DNA of 64,000 nucleotides from Oligoflexia bacterium (GTDB taxonomy: Bacteria > Bdellovibrionota_G > JANQFH01), in the NCBI GenBank assembly GCA_028277945.1, contig JANQFH010000008.1, positions 195,442 to 259,441 of the forward strand, read 5' to 3'. Positions 3,147 through 50,654 of this stretch are shown one piece after another. The notes under the pieces are model-generated. The model saw nothing but the letters and a program-made list of their open reading frames with translations. It was not told the origin of the DNA and did no database searches. Made by a program: the position numbers and the translations under genes. Each line of letters begins with the position of its first letter. Within the stretch, counting starts at the first letter, position 1.

Positions 3147-3569
3147 CTAGTTCGCTAGCAGATCTCTCAAAATGGGTAGCGCTCTTTTTATTTGATCAAG
3201 TGTCGTCCAGGTTGGGTTGGCTGCTTTTGGAGATTCATAGCGTTGGTAGGCAGAGACATCTATACCTATTTTATCAGCAACCTTTTGTTGGGTGAGTTTG
3301 CTCTTAAGACGGCTCATCCGAACCAGCATTGCAATTTCCACCCTAGGATGAACCTTTATCCGCACAATATTTTTCCCTCGAACAGACTTCTTCGGCAGTG
3401 GAAAAATGTATTTGGAATCCTCTGGTTCACTTAGATAAAGATTGAGAACTTCTTCCATTCTTTCCTGCAGTTCCTTTTTGGTTTTAGCGTGTGTAAAACA
3501 GCCATCGAGCTCTAGTCCTTGAGCCCAATAGGCATTGCCTTCCTTATGAACTTTGAAATGATAGTGCAT
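3147..3569 (-). CDS. hicB: HicB-family antitoxin with C-terminal XRE-type HTH
   Basis: N-terminus MHYHFKVHKEGNAYWAQGLELDGCFTHAKTKKELQERMEEVL is HicB/UPF0150-like. C-terminal part LTQQKVADKIGIDVSAYQRYE is an HTH. It lies directly downstream of hicA. Confidence 0.8.
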   Translation of the reverse strand: MHYHFKVHKEGNAYWAQGLELDGCFTHAKTKKELQERMEEVLNLYLSEPEDSKYIFPLPKKSVRGKNIVRIKVHPRVEIAMLVRMSRLKSKLTQQKVADKIGIDVSAYQRYESPKAANPTWTTLDQIKRALPILRDLLAN

Positions 3570-3578
3570 GACGCTCTT

Positions 3579-3773
3579 CTATTTTCTCTTTAATCCTAGC
3601 TTTTTACGAATCGACATCTCAGTTCCCTTTGGCAAATCTTCGTTTGCATGTAATGGAATACTGACCGGTTTATGGCCTTCTTTTACAACAATGACATGAC
3701 TACCTGTCTGCCGATCCTTACGCCATCCCTCTTTTAGAGCCGCCCGCAATAGCTTCTTTCCACTTGTTGGCAT
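3579..3773 (-). CDS. hicA: HicA mRNA-interferase toxin
   Basis: 64 aa. GWRKDRQTGSHVIVVKEGHKPVSIPLHANEDLPKGTEMSIRKKLGL matches the HicA (YcfA-like) pattern GSH..(n)..P.H...L..GT...I. Confidence 0.85.
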   Translation of the reverse strand: MPTSGKKLLRAALKEGWRKDRQTGSHVIVVKEGHKPVSIPLHANEDLPKGTEMSIRKKLGLKRK

Positions 3774-3906: not shown

Positions 3907-5727
3907 TCAAGTTTCTGTTATCGAAATCGGCACATAGCCAACGAGTTCTTTTGGGATGATGCCAACAGAGAGTTTGGCACATCGTTGCTGAAGAGGTTTT
4001 TCTTCATAACGATTGGTCACTAAGATACTCTTTTTGGCAATTCCGAGGCTTTCGATCAGGTCAAGACCGTTCTCTTGCTCTCCAGCAAGTTCATAGTCCA
4101 TGAGAAACAGCGACGACCCATTGTGTTCCAACTGTGAGCAGTCGACTTTAAAACTCTTGGCTGAGCGATAGTGCCGGATGTTCAAGTTCACTCCGTTCAA
4201 CTCCTGCTTAAAACGATAGTCCCATGTTTGGTGTACCGACTGGTCATCGTCAAGAACGATTGCATCCATCCCTTGACTCACCTGCAGGCTAGGTACGAAC
4301 CAGGAGGCCGGGGCGGTTCTCGGCAGCACAAGCGTCACGCAAGTACCCTGGCCAACCTCGGAGTCTATACTGAGATTGCCATTCCACGATTCAAGGGCCT
4401 TACGAGCCTGATAGAGACCAAGGCCCGAGCCTCCTTCTTTGTTATAGGTAAATCCGCGCTCACCGAGTTGGCTGAGCACATCTTTGGGAATGCCTTTACC
4501 ATTATCTCGAATAGTAATCCTGATCTTATCCTTGTCTGGAGGTTTATTATCGTTTTTACTAAGTCCAACTTCTATCAATCCTCCTTTGGGCATTGCCTCA
4601 ACGGCGTTGTTGACAAGGTTGGAGATGACTCGCTTAAAGGTCTTGGGGTCTATCTTGGAGAACAGTCCGTAACAGCTGGGTTCAAAGGTGTCCCGTATCT
4701 GCAAGTCTGTCCTCTCTTTAAACTGCATACGTTTTTCAGAGAGAACGCGACTGACAAGGCTGCTGAGTAGTACAGCCTCTCTTTGGCTGACCTCTGCTTT
4801 CTGGCTATCCATGGTGTCTTCTTTTCTTTTATTTAAATCATTGGCAACATCTCGAATTCTGTCGATAACACTGCGAATCAGCGTGCGTACCTGTTCAGGC
4901 AGATCAACGCAGATGTTGGTTACTGTGTCTAAGGCAGTCAAAGGAGATTGGATATCGTGTGCTACCTGTGTGGCGATCTCTCCCAAGGCCGCGTCCCGCT
5001 CCTTTTTCAAAAGCTCATGTTGCAGCTCGGTGATCTTTTCGCCTACCTCATTGATTGTCTTGTCTATCTCTTTTGATTCAGAGAAGAACAGTGGCGGCAC
5101 AGGTGGCGAGTCATGACGTCTGGCAAGGCCCTTGACGCGACTACGAATCGACAGGATTTCACTCCTAAAAATACGAAACTTTCTATGAGCAATGTAGGAG
5201 GATAGCAACAGTAGCACGGCAAGGGCGACTGTAGTGTAAAAAATAAACTTGTTTTGCAAAGAGCGTAGAAAACGGATGTCAGATACCAAAAATAGCCGCG
5301 CTTGAAGATGTTGTTTCCCGCCAACCATGGTGTGGAAGAAATCAGCCGTTTTATATATGAAGTCTTCGGAGTTTTGGTATTGATCTAGCCTGTTGCTTGA
5401 AAAGAAGCTGCATCCGGTATCGGTGCCGTTGCTGAATGCAAGGCACTGTTGCTCATTATCAAGCAAAAATGCCGCCTTGATATTGCTCAACCCTGAGAGC
5501 GTTTTGAAATACTCCTCTGCAGGCAGGTAGTCTGAATAACTCACCGATTTAGCGATAGCCCAGCGGGTCTGAGCAATAATGACGTCGAACTCCTTGAGGT
5601 AGTTGTCCTTTAGAATCTTCGGCACATAGTAAAAGGCAAGAAAGGCACCAAAGAGCAATAGCACAAGCTGACTACTTAAAATCCCAAGCAGGACTACCGT
5701 TGAAATCGATTGATGGTGCGGTTTCAT
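3907..5727 (-). CDS. hybrid sensor histidine kinase (cassette A)
   Basis: Two TM segments flank a periplasmic region of about 130 aa. H-box VAHDIQSPLTAL. N-box NLVNNAVEAM. G-boxes DNGKGIP and GGSGLGL. C-terminal receiver-like domain (IVLDDD .. LFLMDYEL .. ILVTNR .. IPK). Paralog of 22314-24110 and 35658-37532. Confidence 0.85.
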   Translation of the reverse strand: MKPHHQSISTVVLLGILSSQLVLLLFGAFLAFYYVPKILKDNYLKEFDVIIAQTRWAIAKSVSYSDYLPAEEYFKTLSGLSNIKAAFLLDNEQQCLAFSNGTDTGCSFFSSNRLDQYQNSEDFIYKTADFFHTMVGGKQHLQARLFLVSDIRFLRSLQNKFIFYTTVALAVLLLLSSYIAHRKFRIFRSEILSIRSRVKGLARRHDSPPVPPLFFSESKEIDKTINEVGEKITELQHELLKKERDAALGEIATQVAHDIQSPLTALDTVTNICVDLPEQVRTLIRSVIDRIRDVANDLNKRKEDTMDSQKAEVSQREAVLLSSLVSRVLSEKRMQFKERTDLQIRDTFEPSCYGLFSKIDPKTFKRVISNLVNNAVEAMPKGGLIEVGLSKNDNKPPDKDKIRITIRDNGKGIPKDVLSQLGERGFTYNKEGGSGLGLYQARKALESWNGNLSIDSEVGQGTCVTLVLPRTAPASWFVPSLQVSQGMDAIVLDDDQSVHQTWDYRFKQELNGVNLNIRHYRSAKSFKVDCSQLEHNGSSLFLMDYELAGEQENGLDLIESLGIAKKSILVTNRYEEKPLQQRCAKLSVGIIPKELVGYVPISITET

Positions 5728-5736
5728 TCTCCAAAC

Positions 5737-6675
5737 TCAAGAGATAGGGTGAAGCGCTGCATGTCGTGGTTGGCAAGCATAGCCCAGGCCCTGGGCACGC
5801 TTTTTGTTAATTTGAATCTCGTTCTCGGAAAAGAAGAGCTCTTGTAAACCATTGGAGAACGCCTGGCAGACAACTACGGAAAAAAATGGCAAGAGCTTTT
5901 GTTTGGTAAAGACAAATTCAACATGGATACGGCTTTTTCGCAGGCTATTCTCCAGCTCTCTAAGCGAGTGGTTTGGAAGGCTGGATTCATCAAGTTTCTT
6001 AATGTCATAGTCGGCTGGCGAAAAAGGCGGTATTTCTGTACTGCATACGGTCGGCACGACAAAGGGGAGAATATGCCAGAGGTTGCCACGGATATCTGTG
6101 GGTGGAGGGACATTGCGTGAGTCATAGAGGAGCAGAGCCTCTTTTAGTGCTTTATCCTTGGCTCTGGCCAGATCAAACGCCGCACCAAAACCGTAGCAAC
6201 GTTGTTTCTCAGCAGAAGCAATCTCAGTCATGACCACATGAATGGGAAGATCATGGGTGAGATAGAAGAGGCGAACGTTTTTGTCTTGGTTATGATCGAT
6301 TTCCCATAATACTTTGTTATAGAAGACGGATAGCAGAGCTTGATCGCGCTCAGCCAGTTCGATTAGCGCTGCTTGTCTTGCCTCATTACGGTTGAAGTGG
6401 CAACTCAGGCCGTTGGTGGTTGGCTTGACAGGTTTTGCGTAATAGTGATGTCGCTCCACACACTCCATCAGTGCCGTCAGTTGTGCCTGATAGGGATCTA
6501 AGGCGACACCCACGCCAGCTACCCGATCGTCTCGTCCCTGGGCGTAGACACGGTGCCAGGTGAGGTTGTTAAAGCGAATCTCTTTGTGGGCGAGCGTTTT
6601 GACGATTCCCTGCTGCTGTTTAAGAGTACCCGCAATAACGAGGTTAAGTCGAGCTCTCTGCAGCAGTTGTCCCAT
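5737..6675 (-). CDS. minimal YcaO-domain protein (cassette A)
   Basis: Two ExxER motifs in YcaO-like contexts: LTALMECVERH and TNGLSCHFNRNEARQAALIELAERDQALL. Paralog of 13582-14607. It is only 312 aa with no fused partner domain. Confidence 0.6.
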   Translation of the reverse strand: MGQLLQRARLNLVIAGTLKQQQGIVKTLAHKEIRFNNLTWHRVYAQGRDDRVAGVGVALDPYQAQLTALMECVERHHYYAKPVKPTTNGLSCHFNRNEARQAALIELAERDQALLSVFYNKVLWEIDHNQDKNVRLFYLTHDLPIHVVMTEIASAEKQRCYGFGAAFDLARAKDKALKEALLLYDSRNVPPPTDIRGNLWHILPFVVPTVCSTEIPPFSPADYDIKKLDESSLPNHSLRELENSLRKSRIHVEFVFTKQKLLPFFSVVVCQAFSNGLQELFFSENEIQINKKRAQGLGYACQPRHAALHPIS

Positions 6676-6688
6676 GGCCTACAGTGAG

Positions 6689-8248
6689 TCATGGAGTTGC
6701 CGGCAGAGCAGTTCTTGCCAGCCTCATATCCGCGAAATTGATGTTAAACTCCCACTCTGGCATGTGAGATAGATCGATTTTGGAGGAGGCATAAAAGGGT
6801 GTGGCCAGAAAATAGTAGGGAATAACAAAGCCCTCTTCTAGCATATAGCGGCTGATCTCTCTTGCCATTTGGATACGCTCTTTGGTGTTTCCTGTGGACC
6901 TGGTTGCTTCAATCATCTTATAGAGCCTGCCATCGTTAGGATCACGCACATAAAAGTCATCTGGACCAAAGTCTAGACGAAACACCAAACAAGGGTCTCC
7001 TGGTGGTATGGGTATAATACGGGACCCAAGATCAAAGCCTTGTCCCTGCAATCGGGCTTGTTTCATGGAACTACGAGATAGGGGGGTCATCTCAATTTGA
7101 AATCCATACGCTGAGAGATCATTGATTAATAATAGATCTCTCTTTGTTCTCTTATTCCAAACGTCTGGGTACATATATCTCAACGTCAAAGGCTCCTCTC
7201 TCAACCTGGCATAGATTGCTGTAAACTCTTTGGTCGCAGGTAGTGGGGCTTCAATGCGGCCACTAAAGCCGGGGGGAAAGAACTGATCAGAAGGAGCGTA
7301 AAGAAGTGAGTTACCGAATCTCTTGTGTTGGTGCTCTATGAGAGCTGCAGCAAAGGCAAGCCGTAGGGTTTTGTCCTTAAGGGGGCCTGTAATCGCATTG
7401 ACATAAACAATACGGCTCCAGTTACGTTTTGGTATAAACTGCTGAAAACGCTTTACCCTCTCTTGATCCTCTCGTTCTACTAGTCTATTGCGCTTATCTA
7501 AGAAGATGTCTGTTGTGCCTGCTAAAAGACGCTCCACAGCCTCCAAATCGTCACGCTCATAAACAATAACCGTCTGTGCTCTCTCGCCCCGTGGCTCAAA
7601 CCACTGCTCATGCCACTGCAACTTCACATAGTCCTTACGTTTCCACTCCACAAACTTGTAGGGTCCGCCTAACACAGGAAGCTTTTCTTTATGATAAGGC
7701 TCGTTCTCTGGATAGATCTTCCTCGGTACAACACCAGTACCTGGCATGGCTAGAATAAAGAGAAAGTACTCATAGGGGTTCGATAGGTTAAACTCCAAAG
7801 TGTGTTTGTCGATCATACGAATGGCTTTAGAATCTTTCTTTGGATCGACCCAATCAAAGAGCACGTACTCGGGCCAGTTAGTCTGTTTTCTCTTTAAGGA
7901 GAAGATAACATCTTCAACAGTGATAGGTGAGCCATCGTGAAAGAAGGCATCTTTTCTGATGGTGATCTCATAGCGTCTGCCACCATCATAAGAGCGCCAG
8001 CTCTGAGCTAACATGCCTATCAATGATTGGTCTTCGGCAATAGCAAAGAGGGTGATGGAGGTGCTGTTCAACATATACCAACCGCTGTTGGTCATATTTG
8101 CAGCTGGATCAAGAAAAGCTGGAAAATGATCCAGGTCCAACTTGATTGTGGAGCGGTCATCGCTTTGCAGCTGAGGCAGAGAACTGGCAAAACAGACAGC
8201 CGAAAGGAGTCCTAGGATGCCGACGGCTTTAAAAATCAATCTTTTCAA
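6689..8248 (-). CDS. periplasmic solute-binding protein, family 5 (OppA/DppA-like) (cassette A)
   Basis: Signal peptide GILGLLSAVCFASS. Family-5 signature region LAQSWRSYDGGRRYEITIRKDAFFHDGSPITVEDVIFSLKR. Length is about 520 aa. Confidence 0.85.
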   Translation of the reverse strand: MKRLIFKAVGILGLLSAVCFASSLPQLQSDDRSTIKLDLDHFPAFLDPAANMTNSGWYMLNSTSITLFAIAEDQSLIGMLAQSWRSYDGGRRYEITIRKDAFFHDGSPITVEDVIFSLKRKQTNWPEYVLFDWVDPKKDSKAIRMIDKHTLEFNLSNPYEYFLFILAMPGTGVVPRKIYPENEPYHKEKLPVLGGPYKFVEWKRKDYVKLQWHEQWFEPRGERAQTVIVYERDDLEAVERLLAGTTDIFLDKRNRLVEREDQERVKRFQQFIPKRNWSRIVYVNAITGPLKDKTLRLAFAAALIEHQHKRFGNSLLYAPSDQFFPPGFSGRIEAPLPATKEFTAIYARLREEPLTLRYMYPDVWNKRTKRDLLLINDLSAYGFQIEMTPLSRSSMKQARLQGQGFDLGSRIIPIPPGDPCLVFRLDFGPDDFYVRDPNDGRLYKMIEATRSTGNTKERIQMAREISRYMLEEGFVIPYYFLATPFYASSKIDLSHMPEWEFNINFADMRLARTALPATP

Positions 8249-11987: not shown

Positions 11988-12329
11988 GCTGGATAAAACG
12001 GGACTTTGATCTAGTCTGACCTAAGGTTTCTGGCCCCATACTTGGAAGAGCCACGGCACACTCATAAGAGTGCGGGTATCCTGAGACAAAGTCTTTAAGG
12101 TTGTAACGATTGCAAGGATACTTCTTCATCGTGATATTTGTCGAACTCAAGCAAAGCCCTGCCTTCGCCCTGTAATCAAAACAAGTTGGTCGTATAGTGA
12201 CCATTTTGTTTCCATAAAAGACAATCAGCATTCTATCCAACGTTAGGATCAAGACAAAGTTAATCACTCCACTCCCTTCGTGAAGGCTAACAACTGATTA
12301 CTCTTCGGCTAATAATGGTCTGGCTTTCT

Positions 12330-12345
12330 TGGCACACAATTTGCT
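12330..12345 (+). promoter_or_regulatory. sigma-54 (-24/-12) type promoter upstream of short ORF 12393
   Basis: TGGCACacaatTTGCT. GG at 12331-12332 and GC at 12343-12344 are separated by 10 nt, matching TGGCAC-N5-TTGCW. It lies about 48 nt upstream of ATG 12393. Confidence 0.6.
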
Positions 12346-12392
12346 TTTTTTTAAGCCAGCCACGTCACCTTCAATTTGTTATGGGAGGAACT

Positions 12393-12515
12393 ATGAAGGA
12401 CGCAAAAAAGACAAAACGTCAACAGTCTAAGTCGTCAAAAAAAATCTTTTCCCCTATTAAGGACAAGCTGTTAGATACAGCTATGTCGACTATCACATAT
12501 GATGTAACTGGCTAA
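12393..12515 (+). CDS. candidate precursor/signal peptide, 40 aa (cassette D)
   Basis: MKDAKKTKRQQSKSSKKIFSPIKDKLLDTAMSTITYDVTG. RBS GGGAGG at 12383-12388, 4 nt before the ATG. A sigma-54-type promoter lies upstream. The HExxH gene starts 93 nt downstream on the same strand. Confidence 0.5.
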   Translation: MKDAKKTKRQQSKSSKKIFSPIKDKLLDTAMSTITYDVTG

Positions 12516-12608
12516 GTAGGCAACGAAAATAAGACAACGAAGCTAAGTATGGGAGTGGATGGTCTCTGCTCCCGTACCTTCAAGCCAGGCATATGAGAGA
12601 TCGATTTA

Positions 12609-13601
12609 ATGTGTTTAGAATATCATTCCGCCCCAGGAAAATTATCACCTTTTGTGCTTCGAAAAAATTTTCAAGGATATTTGGTTAAAAGCGCTATTTC
12701 CTACATTAATGAAGTTCAGTCGTCTTTAAAATTGGACCTCAACCACATAATATTAAAGTTATCCAGCCTAGATCAAAACCAGAAATTTTCCCCCTCTATC
12801 TATACAGGGTATCACATACTACAGTCAGCTTACGATAGTCAGAATAAAACCCTTGTGTTGGATGCCCTTCATTTCTTGGTTCAGTATTGCAATGATAAAG
12901 GTGGTAACAATAACATTGATTATTCAACTATACTTACAGAACCATATGAGAATCATTGTATAGACACTTTTCGAAAATCGAACCCTAAAGATGACTTCGG
13001 CGTGCCAGCTTTTGACGTTGTAGAAATGTTTCCAATACTGAATGTTAAAAAATATAAAATTCCTCCGTCTAGCCTTAAAAAGGCTGAAGAAATATTATCG
13101 CTGATTGATATGGATTTATGGAAAGAGTATCAAGCTTACGTTTCTATCTTAAAGATCTTCCAAGGAAAGAGTCTTCAAGGTGGAACAAGTCTCAACTGTT
13201 TTGGTACGGTATACCTGAGAATGCCTGAGGATTCCGAACATCCGGTACTCTACTTCCTGGAACATATTGTGCATGAAACCTCCCATTTGCATCTCTATGC
13301 ATTAGCCGGAGACAGAGACCTTGTTAGAAACGATTCAGCCTCTGTTTATGACTCGCCAATACGACACGACAAACGGCCCATTATTGGGGTATTTCACGCT
13401 ACGTTTGTTTTGGCTCGCTTAGTCCGTATATTTCAGCGCTACCTAAATCATTTTAGCAATGACTATCCAGAAGGAACTACCTTCTACAACAGAATAAGCA
13501 GAGACTTCAAAACCGGATACTCTATATTGAAAGAAAATTGTCTTTTTACAACGCTTGGGCGACAAATTTTTGATTCGTTAGATGATTGTACGAAAATTTG
13601 A
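12609..13601 (+). CDS. HExxH-motif protein (RiPP-associated HEXXH-domain type; possible peptide hydroxylase or peptidase) (cassette D)
   Basis: HIVHETSHLHLY is followed by KRPIIGVFHATFVLAR. The same two blocks occur in paralog 26946-27779 (HELGHHYL .. KRPLFGIYHAAFAEA). Confidence 0.6.
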   Translation: MCLEYHSAPGKLSPFVLRKNFQGYLVKSAISYINEVQSSLKLDLNHIILKLSSLDQNQKFSPSIYTGYHILQSAYDSQNKTLVLDALHFLVQYCNDKGGNNNIDYSTILTEPYENHCIDTFRKSNPKDDFGVPAFDVVEMFPILNVKKYKIPPSSLKKAEEILSLIDMDLWKEYQAYVSILKIFQGKSLQGGTSLNCFGTVYLRMPEDSEHPVLYFLEHIVHETSHLHLYALAGDRDLVRNDSASVYDSPIRHDKRPIIGVFHATFVLARLVRIFQRYLNHFSNDYPEGTTFYNRISRDFKTGYSILKENCLFTTLGRQIFDSLDDCTKI

Positions 13602-14607
13602 AAGGAACGACCCTCTTGGAAATACCGCGTTTGGCAAACTACCTATCAAAAAACTGGTACGTGCTGCAGTCTTCCCTGATCGCTTTTTTGTAGGCAAAGC
13701 AGGTATCAAGCTTGTCAATTGGCAAGGAAATAATCAGTACCTTTGTGGCTTCTCATGCAGCAGACAACCGGCTATTGCCGAAAATGTAGCTGTTTTCGAA
13801 CTCTGTGAACGCTTGACAGCAAAGTATGAATTTCAATCTTTTCTGGGCACGAATATGAATACTTTCAGAGCGTTTACCTGGCCCGATGGGAATCCAGCTA
13901 GAGTGACAAAATCTCAATTATTCCTTGGTCCAAATCCATTTTCCCAATTTGGACAAGAGGCAACTGGCCTAGGTTTTGGCCCTGATTATCATCAAGCATT
14001 AAATCACGCTATTCTTGAATTGTTGGAGAGGCACATCTGCGCAGGTCTTTGGTATGAAGCAAAATATAGGCTATGCAAGGCAATCGACAGAGTATCTTTA
14101 GACTCCTTTGACATTTTCTACTATACCCTCCACAGACCGAAGATACCATTTGTTCTAGCCATTATATACTCGAATGAACTTGAGGTGCTTTCAGTCGGCC
14201 ATGCAATAAGATCTACGTTTGAGGAGGCGAAGGAAAAATCCTACTCCGAAGCAGTGATGCTGTTAGATTGTGTTCTCCACAAGGATAACGGTATCTGTAC
14301 CAATTTAAGAACTAAAAATCGTTTGCTTTCTCAAAGAGGTCCCTTAGCAAAAGAACGATTCCAACAATTTAACGATCTGACAGTAAACGTGGCAGCAGCA
14401 AAAAATATCCTAAGCCGATATTTTTCAATATCTGAGATTACTGCGGCGGTGCTTGGCACTAATGACGATATCGAAATTATTCAACTTTTCCGGGATAGAA
14501 ACTTCTGGTCTCTACGAGCACTTTCGAAGAAGGTGGCTACCTTGGCAGAACGTCGACAATCGAATCGATATTCAGAAAAACAAAAGATTCTGGACCCTTA
14601 TTGCTAA
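13582..14607 (+). CDS. minimal YcaO-domain protein (cassette D)
   Basis: ExxER motifs VAVFELCERL and ATGLGFGPDYHQALNHAILELLERH. Overlaps the HExxH gene by 20 nt. Paralog of 5737-6675. Confidence 0.6.
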   Translation: MIVRKFERNDPLGNTAFGKLPIKKLVRAAVFPDRFFVGKAGIKLVNWQGNNQYLCGFSCSRQPAIAENVAVFELCERLTAKYEFQSFLGTNMNTFRAFTWPDGNPARVTKSQLFLGPNPFSQFGQEATGLGFGPDYHQALNHAILELLERHICAGLWYEAKYRLCKAIDRVSLDSFDIFYYTLHRPKIPFVLAIIYSNELEVLSVGHAIRSTFEEAKEKSYSEAVMLLDCVLHKDNGICTNLRTKNRLLSQRGPLAKERFQQFNDLTVNVAAAKNILSRYFSISEITAAVLGTNDDIEIIQLFRDRNFWSLRALSKKVATLAERRQSNRYSEKQKILDPYC

Positions 14608-14619
14608 GATCAGCATACA

Positions 14620-15888
14620 TTAGAGCTTGTCGGAAATAAGGCTATATCTTTTGGCCGTGCTCCACAACAACAGTGTTGAAGCAAGCCCCACAATGCCAGA
14701 AAGACCAATTAACTTGCCTATGGCTGGATCGGCTTTCATAAGTACAGTGAAGATTACCATGGACAGTATATACCCGACTCTGCCATAAGCCTGTCCTTTC
14801 GATATTGAGTAGGTAAACCGATCTTGGCTAAATTGTGACTGAATCTTGTTTGAAAACATTATAAGGGAAACACCGTACAGGATACCGATAATGATCATTA
14901 GGGCAATAAAGGAGTCTCGAGAAGTTCCTCCAGCAAGAATTAGTGTTAGACTTAGAGCTACAAGAAGAAGAATCAATTTATGAATACTACGGAAGTACAC
15001 TTGAAATGCATTTGGGAAGAGAGTAATTGCGGTTAATGCTAGGAGGAATCCAAAGTAGATAGACGATGGACCTGAAAGTATTCGTGTAATTCCAGAAAGA
15101 TGTTTTGATGCTGCTAGCGATTGCATAAGAATAAAGGCAACCGCTCCAAAAGCTAAATTTGTCAAAAATAGAAACTGATTGTTCCATTTTAGCCAATGGT
15201 CGTCTTTTAAATCTATGATACGTTGATTTGCATTGTTCTGAAAAACATCAACCGATACTTGTTGCATACTGGTTATCTTTTTCATAAAGGATAGTAAAAG
15301 GAAGAGTCCAAGTAGAGAAATAAGGTAGGTTATGGAGTTTACGATGCAGACGACAGACCATCCACTAGTTAGCAGCAACGCTGCGACTGAAGCACTTACC
15401 ATGTTTACTCCACGATTTGCAGCATTCGAGAACGCTAAAGCTCTAGGTAGAGGGAAAAAATTATTCCTATCCAGGAAGATAGGAATAATGGTGGTCAGTT
15501 GTCTTGTTATAAGTGATAATGTACGCATTACTATCATCAGAGCGAGAAATAAGCCGTAAAATAGGTGCCTTGGAAGATATGATATTAAGATAGGCAGAAT
15601 GGTCAGTCCCATTAGGATAAATTCGATACATAGGGCGTAAAAAATTCTATCCTTGATATTTATAATGCGATCAATGTATTTTCCAAGAAAGGGTGCTAAA
15701 CCAATTTGCAGTATGGCATCTGTAGAGAACAGAATCCCCGATAACAATATTCCCGAACTATCGTCAAGAAAGAGTGCAACTGCGAAGAAAAGTAAAAGGC
15801 TATCCCCAAGTTTGGAAATAATCGATAAAGAAAGATACCCCCAAATAGGCGCCTTTGTCATGTTGTGGATTGGCTTTTCTCTATCCAT
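14620..15888 (-). CDS. MFS-type transporter (cassette D)
   Basis: About 12 predicted hydrophobic helices. Loop LGKYIDRIINIKDRI is in the MFS motif-A position. The start is uncertain (15888 or M10 at 15861). Confidence 0.7.
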   Translation of the reverse strand: MDREKPIHNMTKAPIWGYLSLSIISKLGDSLLLFFAVALFLDDSSGILLSGILFSTDAILQIGLAPFLGKYIDRIINIKDRIFYALCIEFILMGLTILPILISYLPRHLFYGLFLALMIVMRTLSLITRQLTTIIPIFLDRNNFFPLPRALAFSNAANRGVNMVSASVAALLLTSGWSVVCIVNSITYLISLLGLFLLLSFMKKITSMQQVSVDVFQNNANQRIIDLKDDHWLKWNNQFLFLTNLAFGAVAFILMQSLAASKHLSGITRILSGPSSIYFGFLLALTAITLFPNAFQVYFRSIHKLILLLVALSLTLILAGGTSRDSFIALMIIIGILYGVSLIMFSNKIQSQFSQDRFTYSISKGQAYGRVGYILSMVIFTVLMKADPAIGKLIGLSGIVGLASTLLLWSTAKRYSLISDKL

Positions 15889-16149: not shown

Positions 16150-17643
16150 CTAGCGTACCCACAAGACAGATGTATCATGTCTCGTTAGATTGATACTTTC
16201 AGGAAGCATGCCCGCAGAAGCACGATCATCGTGTACCAGGGTCTCAATAGCTCGGCCATCCGCAGATTCACCATGAAAAGCAAAGTAGCCACACCAATAG
16301 CTTAGTGGATCTGCCATGGCATTCAAGTAGGAATAGACATCTATGAGTTCAGAACGTAGCTGAGCAATCTCCGTTTCTGTTTCTCCAAGACCAAAACTCA
16401 GTTCTTCGATAGTCTCTTCCAAGTCGTGAGATGACCGCAAGTCGCCGCTGAAGCAGGTCGCAATAGCAGAAAGTCTTTCCTTCTCTAACCGGCTCAGCTT
16501 TCCTTCGTCGTGAAGTACTTGAACTTTTTGTCTAAACTCCTGTGGATTTTTCTCGATTTCCTCTACAGTAAAACTAATCGACTCTCTCTTATTTTCCAAA
16601 ATTGACAGGCCTCTCAGCGCGTCGATCAGTGTATCTATGACTACTACATCCTCGCCTTTCAAATCCTTGCGAAATTTTTCGAGACTTTGGACAGCCAATT
16701 CGACTGTCGCAAGACTTTCTCTAAAGTAGCTCCCCAGGGCCCTTCGAACAGTCATAGCATCTCCTATTAAAGAGACGAGTTCTCTTGAAGAGTCAGCAAT
16801 AGCCTCTAATCTTCTCAACCTCTGGCCTATTTCCTGACAAGGTTCGAGCAAAATTTTTCTTCTAGCACCTACTCTCAATATCAAGAGAGGAACATGATAT
16901 GGCCGATAGAACATCACAACTTCTGATAGGTCTGTCCTCGACCGCTCATCATATGAGCCCGTAATCGGATGAGGGTAGTATCGCCCTCGAAAATAATTAT
17001 CCACCACTCTTCTAATCAGTTCCCCTTTGAGACGAATTTCCAAAATTCCAGGCTCATCGATTTCAAAAGCTAGTTGAACAAACTCTGGACCAAGTTCAAA
17101 TTGCCTACCCATATCTGCATTTCTGTACATACCCCTATCGGCAAACATAATAGGTTCGCTTAGGGCAAAGTGGGAAACCCCATAATAAGCTTCCCTTTTC
17201 CTATCCCATCTCTTCAAGCTCTTCCAGGTAGTTAGAATGGTCTTTGAGTTTAAACGAACATCAACGTTTACCTTTAATCCGTCTAAACTCCTTTCCAGAT
17301 CGGTTCTCTCACCTCGCCGTTCTTCAAAACTTGCTCCAACAAAATGTAGATCTAGCTCCAAGAGGTACGGCCCTGGGCGAATGATTTTCACTCCTGGGAA
17401 CCTTAGTTCTTTGTTGCCATCTATGATATCAGGATAGTCCGAAGATAGACTGGTAATAAATCTACCGTTTTCCATCCTCCCAAAGAGTCGAAAATTAGTA
17501 ATATCAGCGTAGCTTCCAATTCTAGGACCACGAACTCCATGATAAAAAGTATCTCCAGCCTCTGCAGCACGATCACATAGCGCTACTAGTGCAACCAGAG
17601 ACAATAGGAGCCAATGGTACTTTTGTGTCTTTAGAATTATCAT
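16150..17643 (-). CDS. secreted accessory protein 'Z' of toxin module 1 (paralog of 55970..57538)
   Basis: Signal peptide HWLLLSLVALVALCDRAAEA. The C-terminal helical half aligns with 55970-57538: EPCQEIGQRLRRLEAI vs EACTNLGDAENRLSWLETL, and EEIEKNPQEFRQKV vs AKIEKRPKAFRKTV. Confidence 0.7.
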   Translation of the reverse strand: MIILKTQKYHWLLLSLVALVALCDRAAEAGDTFYHGVRGPRIGSYADITNFRLFGRMENGRFITSLSSDYPDIIDGNKELRFPGVKIIRPGPYLLELDLHFVGASFEERRGERTDLERSLDGLKVNVDVRLNSKTILTTWKSLKRWDRKREAYYGVSHFALSEPIMFADRGMYRNADMGRQFELGPEFVQLAFEIDEPGILEIRLKGELIRRVVDNYFRGRYYPHPITGSYDERSRTDLSEVVMFYRPYHVPLLILRVGARRKILLEPCQEIGQRLRRLEAIADSSRELVSLIGDAMTVRRALGSYFRESLATVELAVQSLEKFRKDLKGEDVVVIDTLIDALRGLSILENKRESISFTVEEIEKNPQEFRQKVQVLHDEGKLSRLEKERLSAIATCFSGDLRSSHDLEETIEELSFGLGETETEIAQLRSELIDVYSYLNAMADPLSYWCGYFAFHGESADGRAIETLVHDDRASAGMLPESINLTRHDTSVLWVR

Positions 17644-17648
17644 GCTAT

Positions 17649-18392
17649 TCAGTCTTTTCGCGGTGAAAAAATTACGCCCCCAAGCGTTTCAAAAGGCCTT
17701 CCTATATCTACATCTACCTTCAATACATCGCGGGTCTTGATTCTTGCCCAAAGCGTAGTCGGATCCACACGCCTTTCCTCTTCCATCCAAAACTCGTACT
17801 CGCGAACGAAGAATGCTGGAGAGGTAATATCCGCATCAAAAGCGTTCGGATTAAGATAGTAAATTCTAGGTACCCTATGTTGATGGACCCAATCTATGTC
17901 AGGTTTCTCACTACGAGGCCACTTGTGTGTTTCATAGTTGACCTCATCCACACGTGTTCCGTCGTAGCGGCGACTGTGTTTGAATGTTGCCTTGAGCTTC
18001 CGATTCTCTAGTGCTGATTTTATAATTTTGACTTTCCCAACTCCTGCATAGTGAAAAAATAGAATTACAAGTGCCGTTCGGCCTGAATCGATGTCCTGTA
18101 GAAGTTTCTGAGGAAGAACGGAATCTCTAATTTTATCCGTACCTTCCCTACTTAGGAAGTCAAAAAACCAAATTAGGAAGTCTGATCGAACGAAAAAGAA
18201 AAGTCGATCACCAACGGGATCATGAAATACAAGCGGTTCTTTTATAATCTCCTCCGCCTCGTTCTCGGAAAGCTTCACTCGATGAAAATATTTTGATTCC
18301 TTAATCACTTTGTCCGATGGAAAGTAAGAATCAGCATACAACACTGGCGTCACCACTATAAGAACACTCAAACACAACGTAAAGCGATACAA
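17649..18392 (-). CDS. secreted protein, unknown function (toxin module 1)
   Basis: ORF track. Signal peptide FTLCLSVLIVVTPVLYA. I recognised no motif. Confidence 0.6.
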   Translation of the reverse strand: MYRFTLCLSVLIVVTPVLYADSYFPSDKVIKESKYFHRVKLSENEAEEIIKEPLVFHDPVGDRLFFFVRSDFLIWFFDFLSREGTDKIRDSVLPQKLLQDIDSGRTALVILFFHYAGVGKVKIIKSALENRKLKATFKHSRRYDGTRVDEVNYETHKWPRSEKPDIDWVHQHRVPRIYYLNPNAFDADITSPAFFVREYEFWMEEERRVDPTTLWARIKTRDVLKVDVDIGRPFETLGGVIFSPRKD

Positions 18393-18395
18393 CTT

Positions 18396-19142
18396 CTACT
18401 CTCCAAAACCCTTCACAAAAAACTTCTCATCGATCAACCGCAGACCCTCATAGACCTCATACTTGATCAAGGCACCCTTGGTATCGCGGTAGAGCCCTTT
18501 GCGCACTTGTCTTGGTTTTTTGTAAAGGCCCTCAACCTTGCTCAAAAAGGCTGCCAGTTCCTCTCTACTAAAAGGGCCATGCCGTTCCCAATCGAGCCAA
18601 TCAGGGCCAATGGAGACCACCACCGATAGCTCACGGCTGCCAGGTTTTACTCCACCAAAGAGCTTCTTTGCCATCCTCTGACTGCCAAGCGTCAGGAGGT
18701 GCCAGTTGCGGCTTTCAAAATGCTCTCGCTTGTTCTGCTGATCCATAAACATAAAATAGACGCCTTCGCTCCAGGAGCTACGATCCAGATTGACGCCTTT
18801 TTTGAAGCGCTCTAAAAATGTTTTTAAATCGGCAGGTTGATCATGCCAATGCCGTATGATCCTTTTGATAAAAGACCAGGTTGAGATGACAGACATGCCC
18901 TCCTCATCTTGCGACTGATCCAGAGAGTCGAGTTTTTCTAATTCATAACCTCTAAACAGTTCCGAACCTGTATCAGGCTCTGTTACCAGCAGCAGAGCAC
19001 CATCTTTAAGTTCCACAGTATCTCCAAACTCTATAGGTCTTTCGATATCCTCAGGAACTCCAGGGATATCAATCACTGTATCTCCCTGCTGTGCAAAGGG
19101 AGAGTCTGGATGGGGGGGTCGTTTTTCTCTCTCACGCATCAC
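18396..19142 (-). CDS. cytoplasmic protein, candidate immunity protein for the RES-domain toxin
   Basis: No signal peptide. Its start overlaps the toxin stop by 4 nt (19139-19142), the usual toxin-immunity coupling. No recognisable motif. Confidence 0.5.
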   Translation of the reverse strand: MMREREKRPPHPDSPFAQQGDTVIDIPGVPEDIERPIEFGDTVELKDGALLLVTEPDTGSELFRGYELEKLDSLDQSQDEEGMSVISTWSFIKRIIRHWHDQPADLKTFLERFKKGVNLDRSSWSEGVYFMFMDQQNKREHFESRNWHLLTLGSQRMAKKLFGGVKPGSRELSVVVSIGPDWLDWERHGPFSREELAAFLSKVEGLYKKPRQVRKGLYRDTKGALIKYEVYEGLRLIDEKFFVKGFGE

Positions 19143-20923
19143 TCTAGGGCCTCAAAAAGAACGACGTTAAAGCCATCTGGATTTCTTGCCGAGGGTACGA
19201 CAATACCACGATAGTGCAGCCGCGCCAATTCTCCTATTATTTGTGTTATTGAGTAATCCTCAGAGATCAAAGCTTCAGGAGCTATATTTAATAGCTCCCT
19301 GACACTTGGTTCATTAAGATCGAGCATGTTGTCGAGTGTGACATAGCGGCTTCTTGTTTCAATCACCCCCTTGACACCATGGGCTCGCATTTCCGCGGCG
19401 ATGGTCTGCCGATCGCCGCTCATGTAAAGCGCGCTTCTTCCCGGCGCTGAATAGCGATGGTTGGCGGCAATATTACCCTGCGGTATTTTCCACGAACCTG
19501 CTCGGTAAACATCACCTCTGTATTTACTTCCCTTGACAACACCTTGAACCAGCTTTTTGGTGGTATCAGGCCCCAAAGCTTGGCTCGCCCTTATCACCGC
19601 AGGCAGATGCTGCTGATCAAAGAGCTTTCTTGCCAAGCCACCACCACCGCGCCCTAGCAAACTGGTGGTCCCTCGGACCATGACCGTGCCTGACAGGACC
19701 ATAGGCACCATCATGGAGACAACTGTCTCTAAAGCCATCTCAAGCGGCAAGCTCGCCTCGACAACTCCAGTTGACGAATCCTCTTGTAGTGCCCACAAAT
19801 GGTAGTCTGCTGCCGCCATTTTGAGTGCTCCTGACAAGAACTCGCCGTCTCGGATATCTTGCACTCCCTCAATCATTAAATAGGCGGCATCTATAAGATG
19901 TGGCAGATCTGGCAGGGTTAAGGCATGATCGAGGGTAATCTCCACATGTTGCCAGATGTGTTGGGAGAGCCTCTCACCTAGATCGCGCTCTAACAGCGCC
20001 AACTCATCGAAGGTCTCAACACGGATGCGCGCCATGGAGCTGTCTGCTTCCAAATGGAGTCGACCTTTGGCCGTTGATTGAGCGCGTTCTGCTCGGTCAA
20101 TGAGTTCGTCTAATGTCTCCTGTATCCAGCGATGTCGTATGAGATCTCGCATGCTGCGAAGCTCGTGAACCCGCCGTGAGAATGCCGCGTAGCCATAGGC
20201 AACCACCTCCTTACTTGAAGCCCGTTCCACAGCCGCCAGGGCAACATCGGTGGAGGTGGCCGTGAGCCCCAGAAATAGTGGCAATCCATGTCTGTTTTCA
20301 GGAAGTGGCAACTGAGCTTGCTGTTGAAGTTGCACAAAAAGAGAGGAGTTGTGGATCATGTCACTAGCGGAACTGTGAGAAGCGAGATCGGAACCACCCC
20401 TTTCGTGGAGGGTGCGAATGTCGAGGCCGCTTGCAGATGATTCATCTCGAAGCTGATCATCTTGAGCTTGCTCTGCAGAGAGGCTTAGATGTTTGTTACT
20501 CTCTGCAACTGCAGTGTTGGCTTGAAGTAGGCTGAGGCCACGTTGCAACCCTGTAAGGTACTGAACTCTACGCCGAGCTTCCACATCACTGTGAGTCGGT
20601 GCTGAGCCTTCTTCATCCTCATCATCAAATCCACCGATCTCTCCTCTCGGGCTATCAAAGAAAGGGTCAAATCCTTCATCTTCTGTTTTGTCTTTGGGTT
20701 TTTGAGAGGAAACGATAACAATAGGCGTGTCAAAAACAATATGGACGTTGCCATCGGAGTCAACGGTCACATTTCCTGGCTCTGTGGTGTAGTCGTGCTC
20801 TCTTTCCTGAGCTGATTCAGTTTGTCCTGCATCATCTTGTGCAACAAGCTCTCTCTGCAACGGCGAAAAAAGACAAATCGTCGCGATCAATAAATAAAGC
20901 AGGCTTTTACATGAAATTTTCAT
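19139..20923 (-). CDS. Sec-signal polymorphic toxin with C-terminal RES domain
   Basis: Signal peptide LLYLLIATICLFSPL. The C-terminus NHRYSAPGRSALYMSGDRQTIAAEMRAH .. YRGIVVPSARNPDGFNVVLF fits the RES (Arg-Glu-Ser) pattern. Its overall build is similar to 52634-54766. Confidence 0.75.
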   Translation of the reverse strand: MKISCKSLLYLLIATICLFSPLQRELVAQDDAGQTESAQEREHDYTTEPGNVTVDSDGNVHIVFDTPIVIVSSQKPKDKTEDEGFDPFFDSPRGEIGGFDDEDEEGSAPTHSDVEARRRVQYLTGLQRGLSLLQANTAVAESNKHLSLSAEQAQDDQLRDESSASGLDIRTLHERGGSDLASHSSASDMIHNSSLFVQLQQQAQLPLPENRHGLPLFLGLTATSTDVALAAVERASSKEVVAYGYAAFSRRVHELRSMRDLIRHRWIQETLDELIDRAERAQSTAKGRLHLEADSSMARIRVETFDELALLERDLGERLSQHIWQHVEITLDHALTLPDLPHLIDAAYLMIEGVQDIRDGEFLSGALKMAAADYHLWALQEDSSTGVVEASLPLEMALETVVSMMVPMVLSGTVMVRGTTSLLGRGGGGLARKLFDQQHLPAVIRASQALGPDTTKKLVQGVVKGSKYRGDVYRAGSWKIPQGNIAANHRYSAPGRSALYMSGDRQTIAAEMRAHGVKGVIETRSRYVTLDNMLDLNEPSVRELLNIAPEALISEDYSITQIIGELARLHYRGIVVPSARNPDGFNVVLFEALE

Positions 20924-22077
20924 TTTGCCAGGCTCAGAATCAACTGTAATAGAAATGTGCCGTCCCCCTCCAAGGCTTTGGCGATCTCCAACAAGAGTTC
21001 AAGCTCTTTTGCCTTTTCAGTATCTCCTTGCGCCTTCAAAGCGCTGATTCTTTTCTCAGCCTCTGCAACTGGATTGAATCCCTTGACAATACCGGCAATT
21101 CTCTCGATATCCTCTTGACTATGAGCAACAAGTACTTCCAGGTCTCCTTTCAGCTCAGCATCGCTCAACTGTGGTAACACCTCCTCCCGGATCATGTGCG
21201 TTGCTGTAGACCACGTGAAAATGGCTTCTAATGCGGCAAAGAAATCTCGATTGACCAAAACCTCTTTTTGAACCTCAAGCTTCAACGAGGAGAAGAGATC
21301 GGAAATGTCGAAAAGAAAATCAATCCGTTGAAAATCAGCAAAGTATTGTTCCTTGAGCTCCTTATAAATCGCCGCTGACAGTTCAGCGGGTGCAGCGGCA
21401 AGATAGGAGGCAAGCTGATTGTCACTGCGATCGAGTTTTCGCAGCAGAACATCAACCGCCTGTACGAGCCTATCCCCAGTCTCCAAAGCTTCTTTAAAAC
21501 CAATAATGACCTTGCGGTCCTCTTCTCGAATCCGCCGTTCCACTTCCCGAAATCCTTCTAAGTAGAGAGGATCTAATCGGTTACCAGGCGGAGGTATCCG
21601 TTCATCGATGTCTTCTCGGGTTAGCTCTGGAATAACCGCTGATAGACCGGAAGTCGCCGACAGGGCGACCTGTCGAGAGCCTGCAAGCAGGTTTCTCGCT
21701 GCATCAATGTGCGAGCGGACTTGAAAGGCGAGCGACACAGCCTGACGTATCTCTTCTCTAGAGGATGCTGTTTTAACGGCGTTGACTTTGGCAAAGGGAG
21801 CCTCCAACCCTTCTTTGGTACGGCGAAATTCGTTAAGGGCAGCCGTTAGTCGACGCGTTGACCTCGAGGCCCTTGCATAAAGACCCCGATAGTGCTTATG
21901 CGCTGCGGTGCGTCCCTCACTCTTAACGGTAGCGCTCCTGGTCTGCTCGTATTTAAGCTGGAGACGCCGCAGCTCACCTTCCAGTTCCTCTACCGACTGC
22001 GCAAAGGCAGGTGAAAGAACAAAAAGCGAGATCAGCAACGATTTTAAGACCGACATGGGTAAGTATTTAAAGCACAT
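20920..22077 (-). CDS. secreted coiled-coil accessory protein 'X' of toxin module 1 (paralog of 54768..55964)
   Basis: Signal peptide ends ..SPAFAQSVEELEGE. The paralog has ..SLSQAQSVEEMARE. It is helical and charged throughout. Overlaps the toxin start by 4 nt. The likely start is MSVLKSLL (22056). Confidence 0.7.
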   Translation of the reverse strand: MCFKYLPMSVLKSLLISLFVLSPAFAQSVEELEGELRRLQLKYEQTRSATVKSEGRTAAHKHYRGLYARASRSTRRLTAALNEFRRTKEGLEAPFAKVNAVKTASSREEIRQAVSLAFQVRSHIDAARNLLAGSRQVALSATSGLSAVIPELTREDIDERIPPPGNRLDPLYLEGFREVERRIREEDRKVIIGFKEALETGDRLVQAVDVLLRKLDRSDNQLASYLAAAPAELSAAIYKELKEQYFADFQRIDFLFDISDLFSSLKLEVQKEVLVNRDFFAALEAIFTWSTATHMIREEVLPQLSDAELKGDLEVLVAHSQEDIERIAGIVKGFNPVAEAEKRISALKAQGDTEKAKELELLLEIAKALEGDGTFLLQLILSLAK

Positions 22078-25611: not shown

Positions 25612-25616
25612 TTGTG

Positions 25617-41050: not shown

Positions 41051-41116
41051 ATTCCTATTGAAGTAGTTGGGCATAAATTACGTTAGTGGTTTTAACAAAT
41101 ACTAGTTAAGGTCTTG

Positions 41117-43131: not shown

Positions 43132-43254
43132 TGGTCTGACATATCTTGGTTGTCACCCTACAAACTACACATAGATTGTGTCAAAATTGAACAGTTTGTT
43201 TGAAATGGAGACAGTAACAAACCAAGTAAAAACTAACTGATTTTATGCCTGTGT

Positions 43255-43343
43255 AACCTTGACGGATTTAAGCGATCAGGGTAAGCATTTATAATTAGAC
43301 GAGATTATAAATGAGCTTAGAAAGGGAAGCGCAATGCGGAGTT
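43255..43343 (+). repeat. about 90-nt repeat, copy 1 (copy 2 at 47261..47352)
   Basis: The shared ends AACCTTGACGGATTTAA and GATTATAAAT.AGCTT.GAAAGG.AA..GCAATGCGGAGTT flank a diverged middle. The repeat includes the ATG (MRS..) of the SBP ORF. Confidence 0.6.
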
Positions 43344-50425: not shown

Positions 50426-50654
50426 GAAACAGGCAGCAGCACAGATTGGTCATTTAGTGAAAAAGACCCGTAAAAGTCTAGGTGTCACCCAGAAGGAGTT
50501 GGCGCTGACCTCGGGTACAGGTCTGCGCTTCATCATTGAGCTGGAGAAGGGCAAACCGACCTGTCAACTAGCCAAGGTGCTGACGGTTCTACATACGCTG
50601 GGCATCAAGCTTGAGCTAACGGCGCCAGCCACTGCAAGAGATGACGGCAAATGA
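50424..50654 (+). CDS. hipB: HipB-like XRE-family antitoxin/repressor
   Basis: HTH LGVTQKELALTSGTGLRFIIELEKGKPTCQLAKVLTVLHTLGIKLEL. Overlaps hipA by 4 nt. Confidence 0.8.
   Translation: MKQAAAQIGHLVKKTRKSLGVTQKELALTSGTGLRFIIELEKGKPTCQLAKVLTVLHTLGIKLELTAPATARDDGK

Follow-up and report, generated by a model that had tools for sequence, protein, structure and literature searches.

Small open reading frames ahead of RiPP-type enzyme genes in an Oligoflexia bacterium: candidate precursors of self-produced peptide signals

Three small open reading frames (ORFs), located directly ahead of enzyme genes in a 64,000-nt stretch of an Oligoflexia bacterium (contig JANQFH010000008.1, positions 195,442 to 259,441; further referred to as the window, with all coordinates counted from its first letter), are best read as genes for precursor peptides, each consisting of a recognition or leader part and a C-terminal core, for the adjacent tailoring enzymes. 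The ORFs, listed below, are referred to as pep1, pep2 and pep3. Pep3 is very probably a real precursor; this is fairly likely for pep1, and for pep2 the balance is only slightly in favor. We consider it reasonably probable that the three ORFs encode ribosomal precursor peptides that are matured, exported and sensed as self-produced signals by a periplasmic substrate-binding protein (SBP) and a histidine kinase (HK).

12393-12515, plus strand: pep1, 40-aa candidate precursor peptide MKDAKKTKRQQSKSSKKIFSPIKDKLLDTAMSTITYDVTG; GGAGG at 12384-12388, 4 nt before ATG
27922-27818, minus strand: pep2, 34-aa candidate precursor peptide MAKSNESKKTVSFNFSFQSHRVLGAKLASIPTGS; AGGAG at 27934-27930, 7 nt before ATG
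40258-40175, minus strand: pep3, 27-aa precursor peptide of a conserved family MKKRRREYIDLDKLEKIVVIRGVTVGI; AGGAG at 40269-40265, 6 nt before ATG

The coordinates and translations are exactly those of the first-pass annotation, which also placed each ORF 38–93 nt upstream of a same-strand tailoring gene and reported GGAGG-type ribosome-binding sites at 4–7 nt. Both statements hold: the next gene on the same strand begins after a gap of 93 nt for pep1, 38 nt for pep2 and 44 nt for pep3, and the Shine-Dalgarno (SD) sites are those given above. The genes directly downstream encode enzymes typical for peptides made on the ribosome and modified after translation (RiPPs), namely two α-ketoglutarate-HExxH (aKG-HExxH) hydroxylases of the TIGR04267 family (pep1, pep2) and one DUF4135 protein similar to the LanM dehydratase (pep3). 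All three ORFs thus show the arrangement used to recognize RiPP precursors, a small ORF adjacent to and co-oriented with a maturase gene; small precursor genes ahead of RiPP enzymes are an already known kind.

No intergenic ATG ORF of 20 aa or more in the window other than pep1, pep2 and pep3 carries a 5-mer SD site. The SD sites were nevertheless dropped as a statistical argument for genes, given that the number of 5-mer SD sites followed by ATG in the window (38) equals that in simulated sequence (32.8±5.7). The placement upstream of enzyme genes, unlike the SD sites alone, exceeds chance. A rough estimate from the SD+ATG densities gives about 0.02 per gene for an SD+ATG that opens an ORF of at least 27 codons at most 250 nt upstream; by this value, co-location due to chance would have a probability of about 1e-5 with three out of three, and of 1e-4 when three out of five module heads are counted. 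What is observed is an SD-led small ORF ahead of all three operons in the window that begin with a RiPP enzyme. Hence the earlier judgment that these ORFs are unlikely to be due to chance stands for the co-location and falls for the SD sites.

Composition was assessed on the 378 ATG ORFs of 20–60 aa found in all frames of the window. Three or more Lys/Arg in residues 2–10 occur in 10.8% of them, T.?G within the last six residues occurs in 2.4%, and the two features are combined in three ORFs, namely pep1, pep2 and pep3. The criteria were picked after the peptides had been seen, and for this reason the rare shared composition is only suggestive. None of the three peptides matched an NCBIfam model. 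No known RNA was found in the window by Rfam, and known RNA elements were thereby ruled out as an explanation for the ORF regions. The promoter and terminator scans were uninformative, with weak promoter-like sites upstream of pep1 and pep2 and none upstream of pep3.

Pep3 certainly belongs to a real gene family, which is conserved together with the enzyme gene. A word-indexed protein search yielded 24 relatives of the pep3 enzyme, and a genome scan with this enzyme yielded 134 encoding loci in Bdellovibrionota and Polyangia. In all 11 low-GC Bdellovibrionota loci, which cover Bdellovibrionales, Bacteriovoracaceae, Pseudobdellovibrionaceae, Oligoflexia and the isolate Fluviispira multicolorata, the order enzyme, SBP_bac_5 protein, hybrid HK is kept, and in each of them an ORF ends shortly 5' of the enzyme gene, its last ~25 residues aligning with pep3. 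A hidden Markov model (HMM) was built from 10 foreign ORFs in the same position, with pep3 left out. It placed pep3 at the top of 2,534 stop-to-stop segments of the window with E=8.3e-6, the next segment having E=1.9. The family HMM applied to 57,728 segments of 160 loci produced significant matches, with E up to 4e-5, solely among the ORFs that directly precede the enzyme gene. The next match, with E=0.15, was found independently on a metagenome contig (L152), and the few others have E above 5. The L152 member MKTIQIDLDTLEITAENTESGVSSA has a GGAG SD site and lies directly upstream of the enzyme gene; there the peptide ORF accompanies the enzyme even though the latter runs divergently from the SBP-HK pair. 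In total, the peptide and the enzyme are adjacent in 13 of 13 Bdellovibrionota-type loci, which are also counted as keeping the gene series small ORF, mini-LanM kinase/dehydratase of 350 aa, SBP_bac_5 protein, hybrid HK.

The alignment of 13 members has the pattern [FY]-x-I-D-L-[DK]-x-L-E, then 7–10 residues, then Thr/Ser and small residues at the C-terminus, with tails such as VTVGI, TVGTF, GITSG, TITSG and TVSSG. The IDL[DK]xLE segment with the Thr tail, found in 13 loci, is a recognition motif of the kind by which RiPP precursors are identified. Five members (L007, L009, L030, L044, L055) are ~90–125 aa long and start with a Sec-type signal peptide; the remaining members are short like pep3, and some of them are not basic. 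Pep3 contains no Cys and has a single modifiable Thr in its core, and Cys is absent from the tails of 12 of the 13 members. In a codon-usage log-odds test, in which pep1, pep2 and pep3 were compared with coding and non-coding ORFs, pep3 scored 0.085 and pep1 0.051, both in the gene-like range. The family occurs across predatory Bdellovibrionota; it seems to be new in the open-access literature searched. The precursor from Fluviispira multicolorata 33A1-SZDP (L063 9773-9991, NZ_WFLN01000005.1) contains a perfect 24-nt tandem repeat of 5.9 copies, which encodes the leader motif MDLDKLE(C) six times ahead of one tail, IKSFKFFGTVL.

The other genes of the pep3 operon and the candidate exporter of its product are as follows.

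39039-40130, minus strand: stand-alone mini-LanM, 363 aa, with the kinase/dehydratase core of class II lanthipeptide synthetases; PF13575 39.7 bits vs cut-off 29
37483-39042, minus strand: periplasmic SBP_bac_5 protein with signal peptide; PF00496 E=3.2e-31; in the clade of mini-LanM-module SBPs
35658-37532, minus strand: membrane hybrid HK, 34% identical to the kinase at 22314-24110
34454-35638, plus strand: 394-aa protein, candidate exporter for the pep3 product; largely hydrophobic, multi-pass membrane protein as judged by eye

The mini-LanM family profile was aligned to LicM2 with E=4.9e-7 over the blocks LGDxH...KPR, DxHxxN...DxE and DIPYF. GDPH, K24, D114/H116/N119 and D136 of mini-LanM, all aligned to LicM2, are invariant or nearly so within the family, and the aligned blocks correspond by spacing to D252/H254, K274, D347/H349/N352 and D364 of CylM. 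The latter residues were assigned by mutagenesis to phosphorylation, and D252/H254, to phosphate elimination (PMC4550811). Further, the invariant R219 and the nearly invariant T225 of mini-LanM have the same R-x5-T spacing as R506/T512 of CylM. In the AlphaFold (AF2) model of the enzyme, which has a predicted local distance difference test score (pLDDT) of 88.8 and a predicted template modeling score (pTM) of 0.91, the lipid-kinase-like fold of the LanM kinase/dehydratase is present: the only PDB matches of the model with E<0.001 in Foldseek were CylM (1.5e-6) and LicM2 (2.8e-6), followed by PI3K-type kinases.

Mini-LanM resembles the LanM dehydratase domain (CylM 5DZT, LicM2 6ST5) in sharing the lipid-kinase-like fold and the GDxH, KPR, DxHxxN and DxE motifs (PMC4550811), in the R-x5-T pair with the spacing of the elimination residues, and in the adjacent small precursor gene. 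It differs from LanM in its length of 363 aa and in having neither the N-terminal capping region nor the LanC-like cyclase domain. Only the DUF4135 core matches, the score with the LanM model TIGR03897 being 27.4 bits vs the cut-off of 304. Because the cyclase domain is absent, this score is far below the cut-off and pep3 has no Cys, the pep3 system is not a lanthipeptide one, and membership in class II lanthipeptides was rejected. Pep3 could form no lanthionine, and the system also differs from LanM systems in having no double-glycine leader and no LanT transporter.

A closer parallel is phospeptin from 'Ca. Eudoremicrobium', in which a precursor (EmbA) is likewise accompanied by a sole maturase (EmbM) homologous to the LanM dehydration domain (PMC9259500, PMC10235938), and the pathway yields a ring-free linear peptide with modified Ser/Thr (PMC9259500, PMC10235938). 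Catalytic-site residues of EmbM are changed, and its product retains phosphates (Nature paper on phospeptin). Mini-LanM, in which the putative elimination residues are conserved, is set apart from EmbM by this description, and phospeptin, unlike the pep2 and pep3 operons, has no reported SBP or HK. EmbM appears to be the nearest described analogue of mini-LanM. An exhaustive profile search (E<=1e-30) produced 387 mini-LanM clusters at 50% identity. We regard mini-LanM as a sizeable stand-alone family, since all 150 clusters listed of these 387 have lengths of 257–407 aa; the published survey of DUF4135 left out sequences under 500 aa (PMC10676384). In the open-access literature searched, a stand-alone mini-LanM in the role proposed here seems to be new.

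The pep1 operon and its neighborhood include the following genes.

12559-12609, plus strand: 16-aa ORF MVSAPVPSSQAYERSI between pep1 and the HExxH gene; GGGAG SD; TAA stop overlaps the enzyme ATG (TAATG)
12609-13601, plus strand: aKG-HExxH-type peptide hydroxylase, 330 aa; TIGR04267 66.4 bits vs cut-off 40; HETSH at residue 222
13582-14607, plus strand: short protein of 341 aa with a YcaO domain, its gene overlapping the HExxH gene at the end of the latter; PF02624 37.2 bits vs cut-off 25.7
14620-15888, minus strand: major facilitator superfamily (MFS) transporter, candidate exporter, convergent with the pep1 operon; PF07690 E=2e-5, below the curated cut-off

Upstream of pep1 the frame stays open as far as an ATG at 12315 (12315-12515, plus strand), which would give a product of 66 aa with a hydrophobic N-terminus; this ATG has no SD site and overlaps a promoter-like site. 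Only four homologues of the HExxH enzyme were found, with identities of 37, 36, 26 and 40%. A small ORF lies just upstream of the homologue in all three loci fetched (L002, L003, L004), and in two of them it was annotated as a gene by the depositors' pipeline. Homology of pep1 to these ORFs was considered and rejected: the shuffle p-values of the local scores are 0.01–0.03, yet the ORFs are not the top phmmer or blastp matches, and the similarity is not significant. The YcaO protein is not of the SagD type (TIGR03604 19.9 bits vs cut-off 219), and no E1-like/Ocin-ThiF partner or dehydrogenase gene was found; the assignment of the pep1 cluster to the azol(in)e-forming, SagD-type thiazole/oxazole-modified microcins (TOMMs) was rejected on these grounds.

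The 16-aa ORF may serve translational coupling, as suggested by the overlap of its stop with the start of the HExxH gene. Together with the short gaps between the small ORFs and the next genes, this coupling would suit an interpretation of the ORFs as regulatory upstream ORFs that tune the downstream operon and have functionless products. We regard such an explanation as highly improbable given that the specific amino-acid motif of the pep3 family is kept over deep divergence, five family members are ~90–125 aa long with a Sec signal peptide, and the ORF accompanies the enzyme even where the latter is divergent from the SBP-HK pair (L152).

Downstream of pep2, the operon consists of four genes.

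26946-27779, minus strand: aKG-HExxH-type peptide hydroxylase; TIGR04267 43.6 bits vs cut-off 40; HELGH at residue 161
25617-26933, minus strand: MFS transporter, candidate exporter of the pep2 product; PF07690 E=5.7e-7, below the curated cut-off
24097-25701, minus strand: periplasmic SBP_bac_5 protein with signal peptide; PF00496 E=1.9e-31; true start probably the ATG at about 25611
22314-24110, minus strand: membrane hybrid HK (HisKA-HATPase-REC by Pfam); H248, DDD483-485, D535, T562 and K584 invariant in the family alignment

The two HExxH proteins of the window are 28% identical over 121 aa (E=2e-8); the homologue search with the pep2 enzyme returned only itself. Enzymes of the aKG-HExxH type are RiPP maturases that beta-hydroxylate Asp, His, Gln or Asn and also perform oxidative C-terminal cleavage; the precursors and transporters are encoded beside them, and they act on adjacent RiPP precursors (PMC12636437). 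Since these maturases act on adjacently encoded precursors, pep1 and pep2 are credible substrates; the support for both comes from position alone, and direct evidence is thin. Like the described RiPP enzymes of this type (ChlH, BpmH, PflC/PosC; IPR026337/TIGR04267), the pep1 and pep2 enzymes pass the model and carry HExxH, and their neighbors include a small ORF and a transporter, an arrangement known from the pfl cluster (PMC12636437). Unlike in the known precursors, neither a poly-Gln/ARMD nor a cyclophane motif is present in pep1 or pep2. The operons are different as well, with a short YcaO partner in the pep1 operon and an SBP and an HK in the pep2 operon. A supporting analogue for the pep2 operon type may be seen in L088 from the metagenome scan, where a small ORF (...MMKKSYDFEKIRQQKL...EYTD) heads an operon that continues with two methyltransferases, an HExxH enzyme, an SBP and an HK.

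The first-pass annotation treated the three peptides as one group with a Lys/Arg-rich start, a Thr-Gly tail and a leader-plus-core layout for a shared export or processing step, and proposed a conservation search with the peptides. Our searches revealed the pep3 family with its conserved Thr/Ser tail and no homologues of pep1 and pep2. No homology was detected among pep1, pep2 and pep3. Distant membership of pep1 and pep2 in the pep3 family was also rejected: the family HMM left both unscored, and the single-sequence searches over the 160 loci were empty. Their maturases differ too, being HExxH with YcaO for pep1, HExxH for pep2 and mini-LanM for pep3. The leader-plus-core layout remains the best reading, with pep3 conserved in 13 loci, and a shared family or processing step found no support. 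The basic start, rare in combination with the tail, is not a feature of the pep3 family because a Sec signal peptide stands at the beginning of some members, while others are short and lack basic character. The tail is a real tendency of the pep3 family. Because it recurs there and is rare in background ORFs, a shared recognition tail is possible, and the C-terminal Thr-x-Gly/Ser may be a common handle for the paralogous binding proteins.

Paralogous SBP-HK pairs adjoin RiPP-type enzymes of interchangeable kinds. The window contains four SBP paralogues and three HK paralogues (22314-24110, 35658-37532 and 3907-5727, all on the minus strand); the SBPs of the pep2 and pep3 operons are 27% identical. 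The SBP_bac_5 gene lies directly upstream of the HK gene in both operons and in 11 of 11 genome loci. The modules of the window contain neither ABC permease nor ATPase genes, and therefore the SBPs are not importer components. In the alignment of 12 kinases the phospho-acceptor His and the complete C-terminal receiver signature (DDD, D535, T562, K584) are kept, which identifies the kinases as hybrid. Neither an Hpt gene nor one for a response regulator was noticed in the window. A homologue of the candidate exporter at 34454-35638, for which no Pfam family matched, adjoins pep3-type modules in L006 and L063.

Two further modules of the window contain no small ORF; precursor ORFs were sought upstream of 8248 and in the 41114-44740 module, and none was found.

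3907-8248, minus strand: SBP_bac_5 protein 6689-8248, YcaO 5737-6675, hybrid HK 3907-5727
41114-44740, plus strand: MFS transporter 41114-42331, 267-aa protein 42328-43131, SBP_bac_5 protein 43334-44740

The SBP-YcaO-HK order of the 3907-8248 module recurs in metagenome loci L094, L140 and L146, and in L094 and L140 a small ORF with a signal peptide precedes the SBP gene. Our guess is that this module might be the receptor for the pep1 product. In the other module, the SBP is 42% identical to that of the pep2 operon (24097-25701). The 267-aa protein had no family match, a relative of it lies beside an HK in L141, and it may be a further type of maturase.

When metagenomes were scanned with the kinase alignment, 80 loci were obtained; 11 of them had an SBP_bac_5 gene 5' of the kinase and readable neighbors. 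All these 11 loci encode an enzyme of a RiPP class in the same gene string as the SBP-HK pair: radical SAM (L089, L114, L133), B12-radical SAM with a methyltransferase and an MFS transporter (L090), YcaO (L094, L100, L140, L144, L146), ATP-grasp (L154) and HExxH (L088). L088, L089, L094, L114, L133 and L140 also contain small ORFs, which often encode a signal peptide. The distance tree shows the SBPs grouped mostly by the type of the adjacent maturase; the 12 mini-LanM-type SBPs form one group, which also contains the window SBPs 24097-25701 and 43334-44740. The ~57–60-aa signal-peptide ORFs at L089 1340-1740 (MKKRIKHYCLLVLTVLPIAAVSFAA...) and L114 1690-2010 (MGKAFKRFCLMLLAVLPIASVSFAA...) are visibly similar; each separates a radical SAM gene from the SBP-HK pair, and L114 also encodes a CAAX-type protease.

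A binding protein gene beside that of a membrane hybrid kinase, with no ABC permease genes, is known from CBP-ChiS (Vibrio) and LuxP-LuxQ. CBP is from the same Pfam family, SBP_bac_5, as the window SBPs, and the chitin sensor CBP-ChiS is a precedent for an SBP_bac_5 protein that governs a hybrid kinase (PMC8050422). The known ligands in these systems are chitin oligosaccharides and autoinducer 2 (AI-2), respectively, and not a matured peptide from the same operon. The pep2 and pep3 operons, in which a single locus encodes a small precursor, a dedicated modifying enzyme and a receptor histidine kinase, resemble the well-known systems AgrD/AgrB/AgrC, ComX/ComQ/ComP and nisin-NisK. They differ from them in that no component is homologous, sensing would proceed via a separate periplasmic SBP, and the hosts are Gram-negative; in particular, no Pfam family of AgrB-type or ComQ-type processing enzymes was present among the window proteins scanned. 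The sensing of peptide autoinducers by histidine kinases is textbook knowledge for Gram-positive bacteria and is rare in Gram-negative ones.

The nisin case also represents another interpretation, in which the peptides are antimicrobial or predation-related RiPPs, and the SBP-HK pair either autoinduces their production or senses prey peptides. Antimicrobial RiPPs typically have enzymes of these classes, predatory Bdellovibrionota contain relatives of the modules, and autoinduction of lantibiotics via kinases is generally known. This interpretation seems improbable, since the modules contain no immunity, ABC-exporter or leader-protease genes, the pep3 core is tiny, with one modifiable Thr and no Cys, and within the cassette conservation is highest for the receptor pair, the maturases being swapped.

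In the signaling scheme that we prefer, each precursor would be translated from its own SD site at the head of the operon encoding its maturase. The cytoplasmic ATP-dependent mini-LanM would bind pep3 via the I-D-L-D-K-L-E segment, phosphorylate the conserved C-terminal Thr24 and probably then dehydrate it. Pep1 would be hydroxylated by the aKG-HExxH enzyme, with its Ser/Thr/Asp-rich tail further modified by YcaO, and pep2 would be hydroxylated by the second HExxH enzyme. The products might be exported by the MFS transporters or by the membrane protein 34454-35638; relatives whose precursors are longer would use Sec. Once in the periplasm, the mature peptide would be bound by the SBP_bac_5 protein of its own operon, and the peptide-loaded SBP would switch the adjacent hybrid HK, resulting in an autocrine or quorum-type signal. 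We infer the translation of pep1 and pep2, the modification chemistry, the export and the role of the peptide as the SBP-HK ligand.

Several observations weigh against this scheme. The window contains four intergenic SD+ATG sites, approximately the chance level. No homologue of pep1 was detected in an exact-sequence look-up and in sequence searches that included the 160 loci, and none of pep2 in the single-sequence searches over these loci. The codon-usage score of pep2, −0.030, lies between the coding and non-coding distributions, is ambiguous and is reached by 33% of non-coding ORFs. All this, as well as the non-significant similarity of pep1 to the ORFs upstream of the HExxH homologues, would be expected if pep1 and/or pep2 were chance ORFs in 5' leaders and pep3 alone were real, the HExxH enzymes having their substrates elsewhere or none at all. 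We consider that unlikely. An SD-led ORF of at least 27 codons that lies no more than 100 nt from an enzyme gene is expected only about 0.02 times per gene, and such ORFs precede all three RiPP-enzyme-led operons. Moreover, small ORFs precede the enzyme in L002, L003 and L004 and head the L088 operon, the codon usage of pep1 is gene-like, and the composition common to the three peptides is rare in background ORFs.

Other points against the scheme concern pep3 and its enzyme. Pep3 has no signal peptide, and its operon has no exporter gene. The equivalence of R219/T225 to the elimination residues R506/T512 is inferred from spacing only. The Polyangia homologues of mini-LanM (high-GC loci, L008–L084) are accompanied by no SBP, HK or detectable pep3-like ORF, and in ~33 of 44 Polyangia loci a DTW-domain gene adjoins or follows the mini-LanM gene (e.g. 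L020 11210-11890, L061 11354-12067). Since the Polyangia loci contain no peptide, SBP or HK, the mini-LanM family is not tied to these peptides everywhere and has at least one other context. Such loci would be expected if the peptides were secreted unmodified and the mini-LanM kinase acted on another substrate, a protein or a small molecule. We give that possibility little credence, because the peptide adjoins the enzyme in 13 of 13 Bdellovibrionota-type loci, the peptide tail keeps a Thr/Ser, and the characterized relatives, LanM and EmbM, all act on peptides (PMC4550811, PMC9259500).

Further genes were noted in the window. Toxin-antitoxin genes are located at 3147-3773 (minus strand), 50651-51907, 58138-58536 and 62016-62596 (all plus strand); the set comprises HicA (64-aa ORF) with a helix-turn-helix partner, HipA, and two PIN-domain toxins, the second of which is preceded by a 55-aa SD-bearing ORF (62016-62183), likely the antitoxin. 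A string of five genes at 16150-22077 (minus strand) had no family matches; its 594-aa member has a C-terminal RES domain and a sub-threshold MbnB/MNIO match, and the 497-aa protein 16150-17643 (minus strand) has a 27%-identical paralogue at 55970-57538 (minus strand).

On a broader and more tentative level, to which we assign somewhat less than even chances, the window may be a hotspot of modular multi-channel autoinducer cassettes that occur in Bdellovibrionota and other phyla and constitute an undescribed class of Gram-negative peptide signaling. Such a cassette would consist of a precursor, a swappable maturase (mini-LanM, aKG-HExxH, YcaO, radical SAM or ATP-grasp), an optional exporter and the SBP_bac_5/hybrid HK pair. 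The open-access literature yielded no description of a RiPP, SBP and HK cassette in Bdellovibrionota or Gram-negative bacteria, and the recurrent coupling of swappable RiPP maturases to an SBP_bac_5 protein and a hybrid kinase seems to be new in the literature searched. The key gene of each cassette is missed by gene callers. The cultured carrier Fluviispira multicolorata 33A1-SZDP renders the idea directly testable. If it is true, the stand-alone mini-LanM family of ~390 clusters would obtain its first function, RiPP maturases would be seen as swapped onto a conserved receptor pair, and predatory Bdellovibrionota and other lineages would gain several private, chemically distinct peptide channels.

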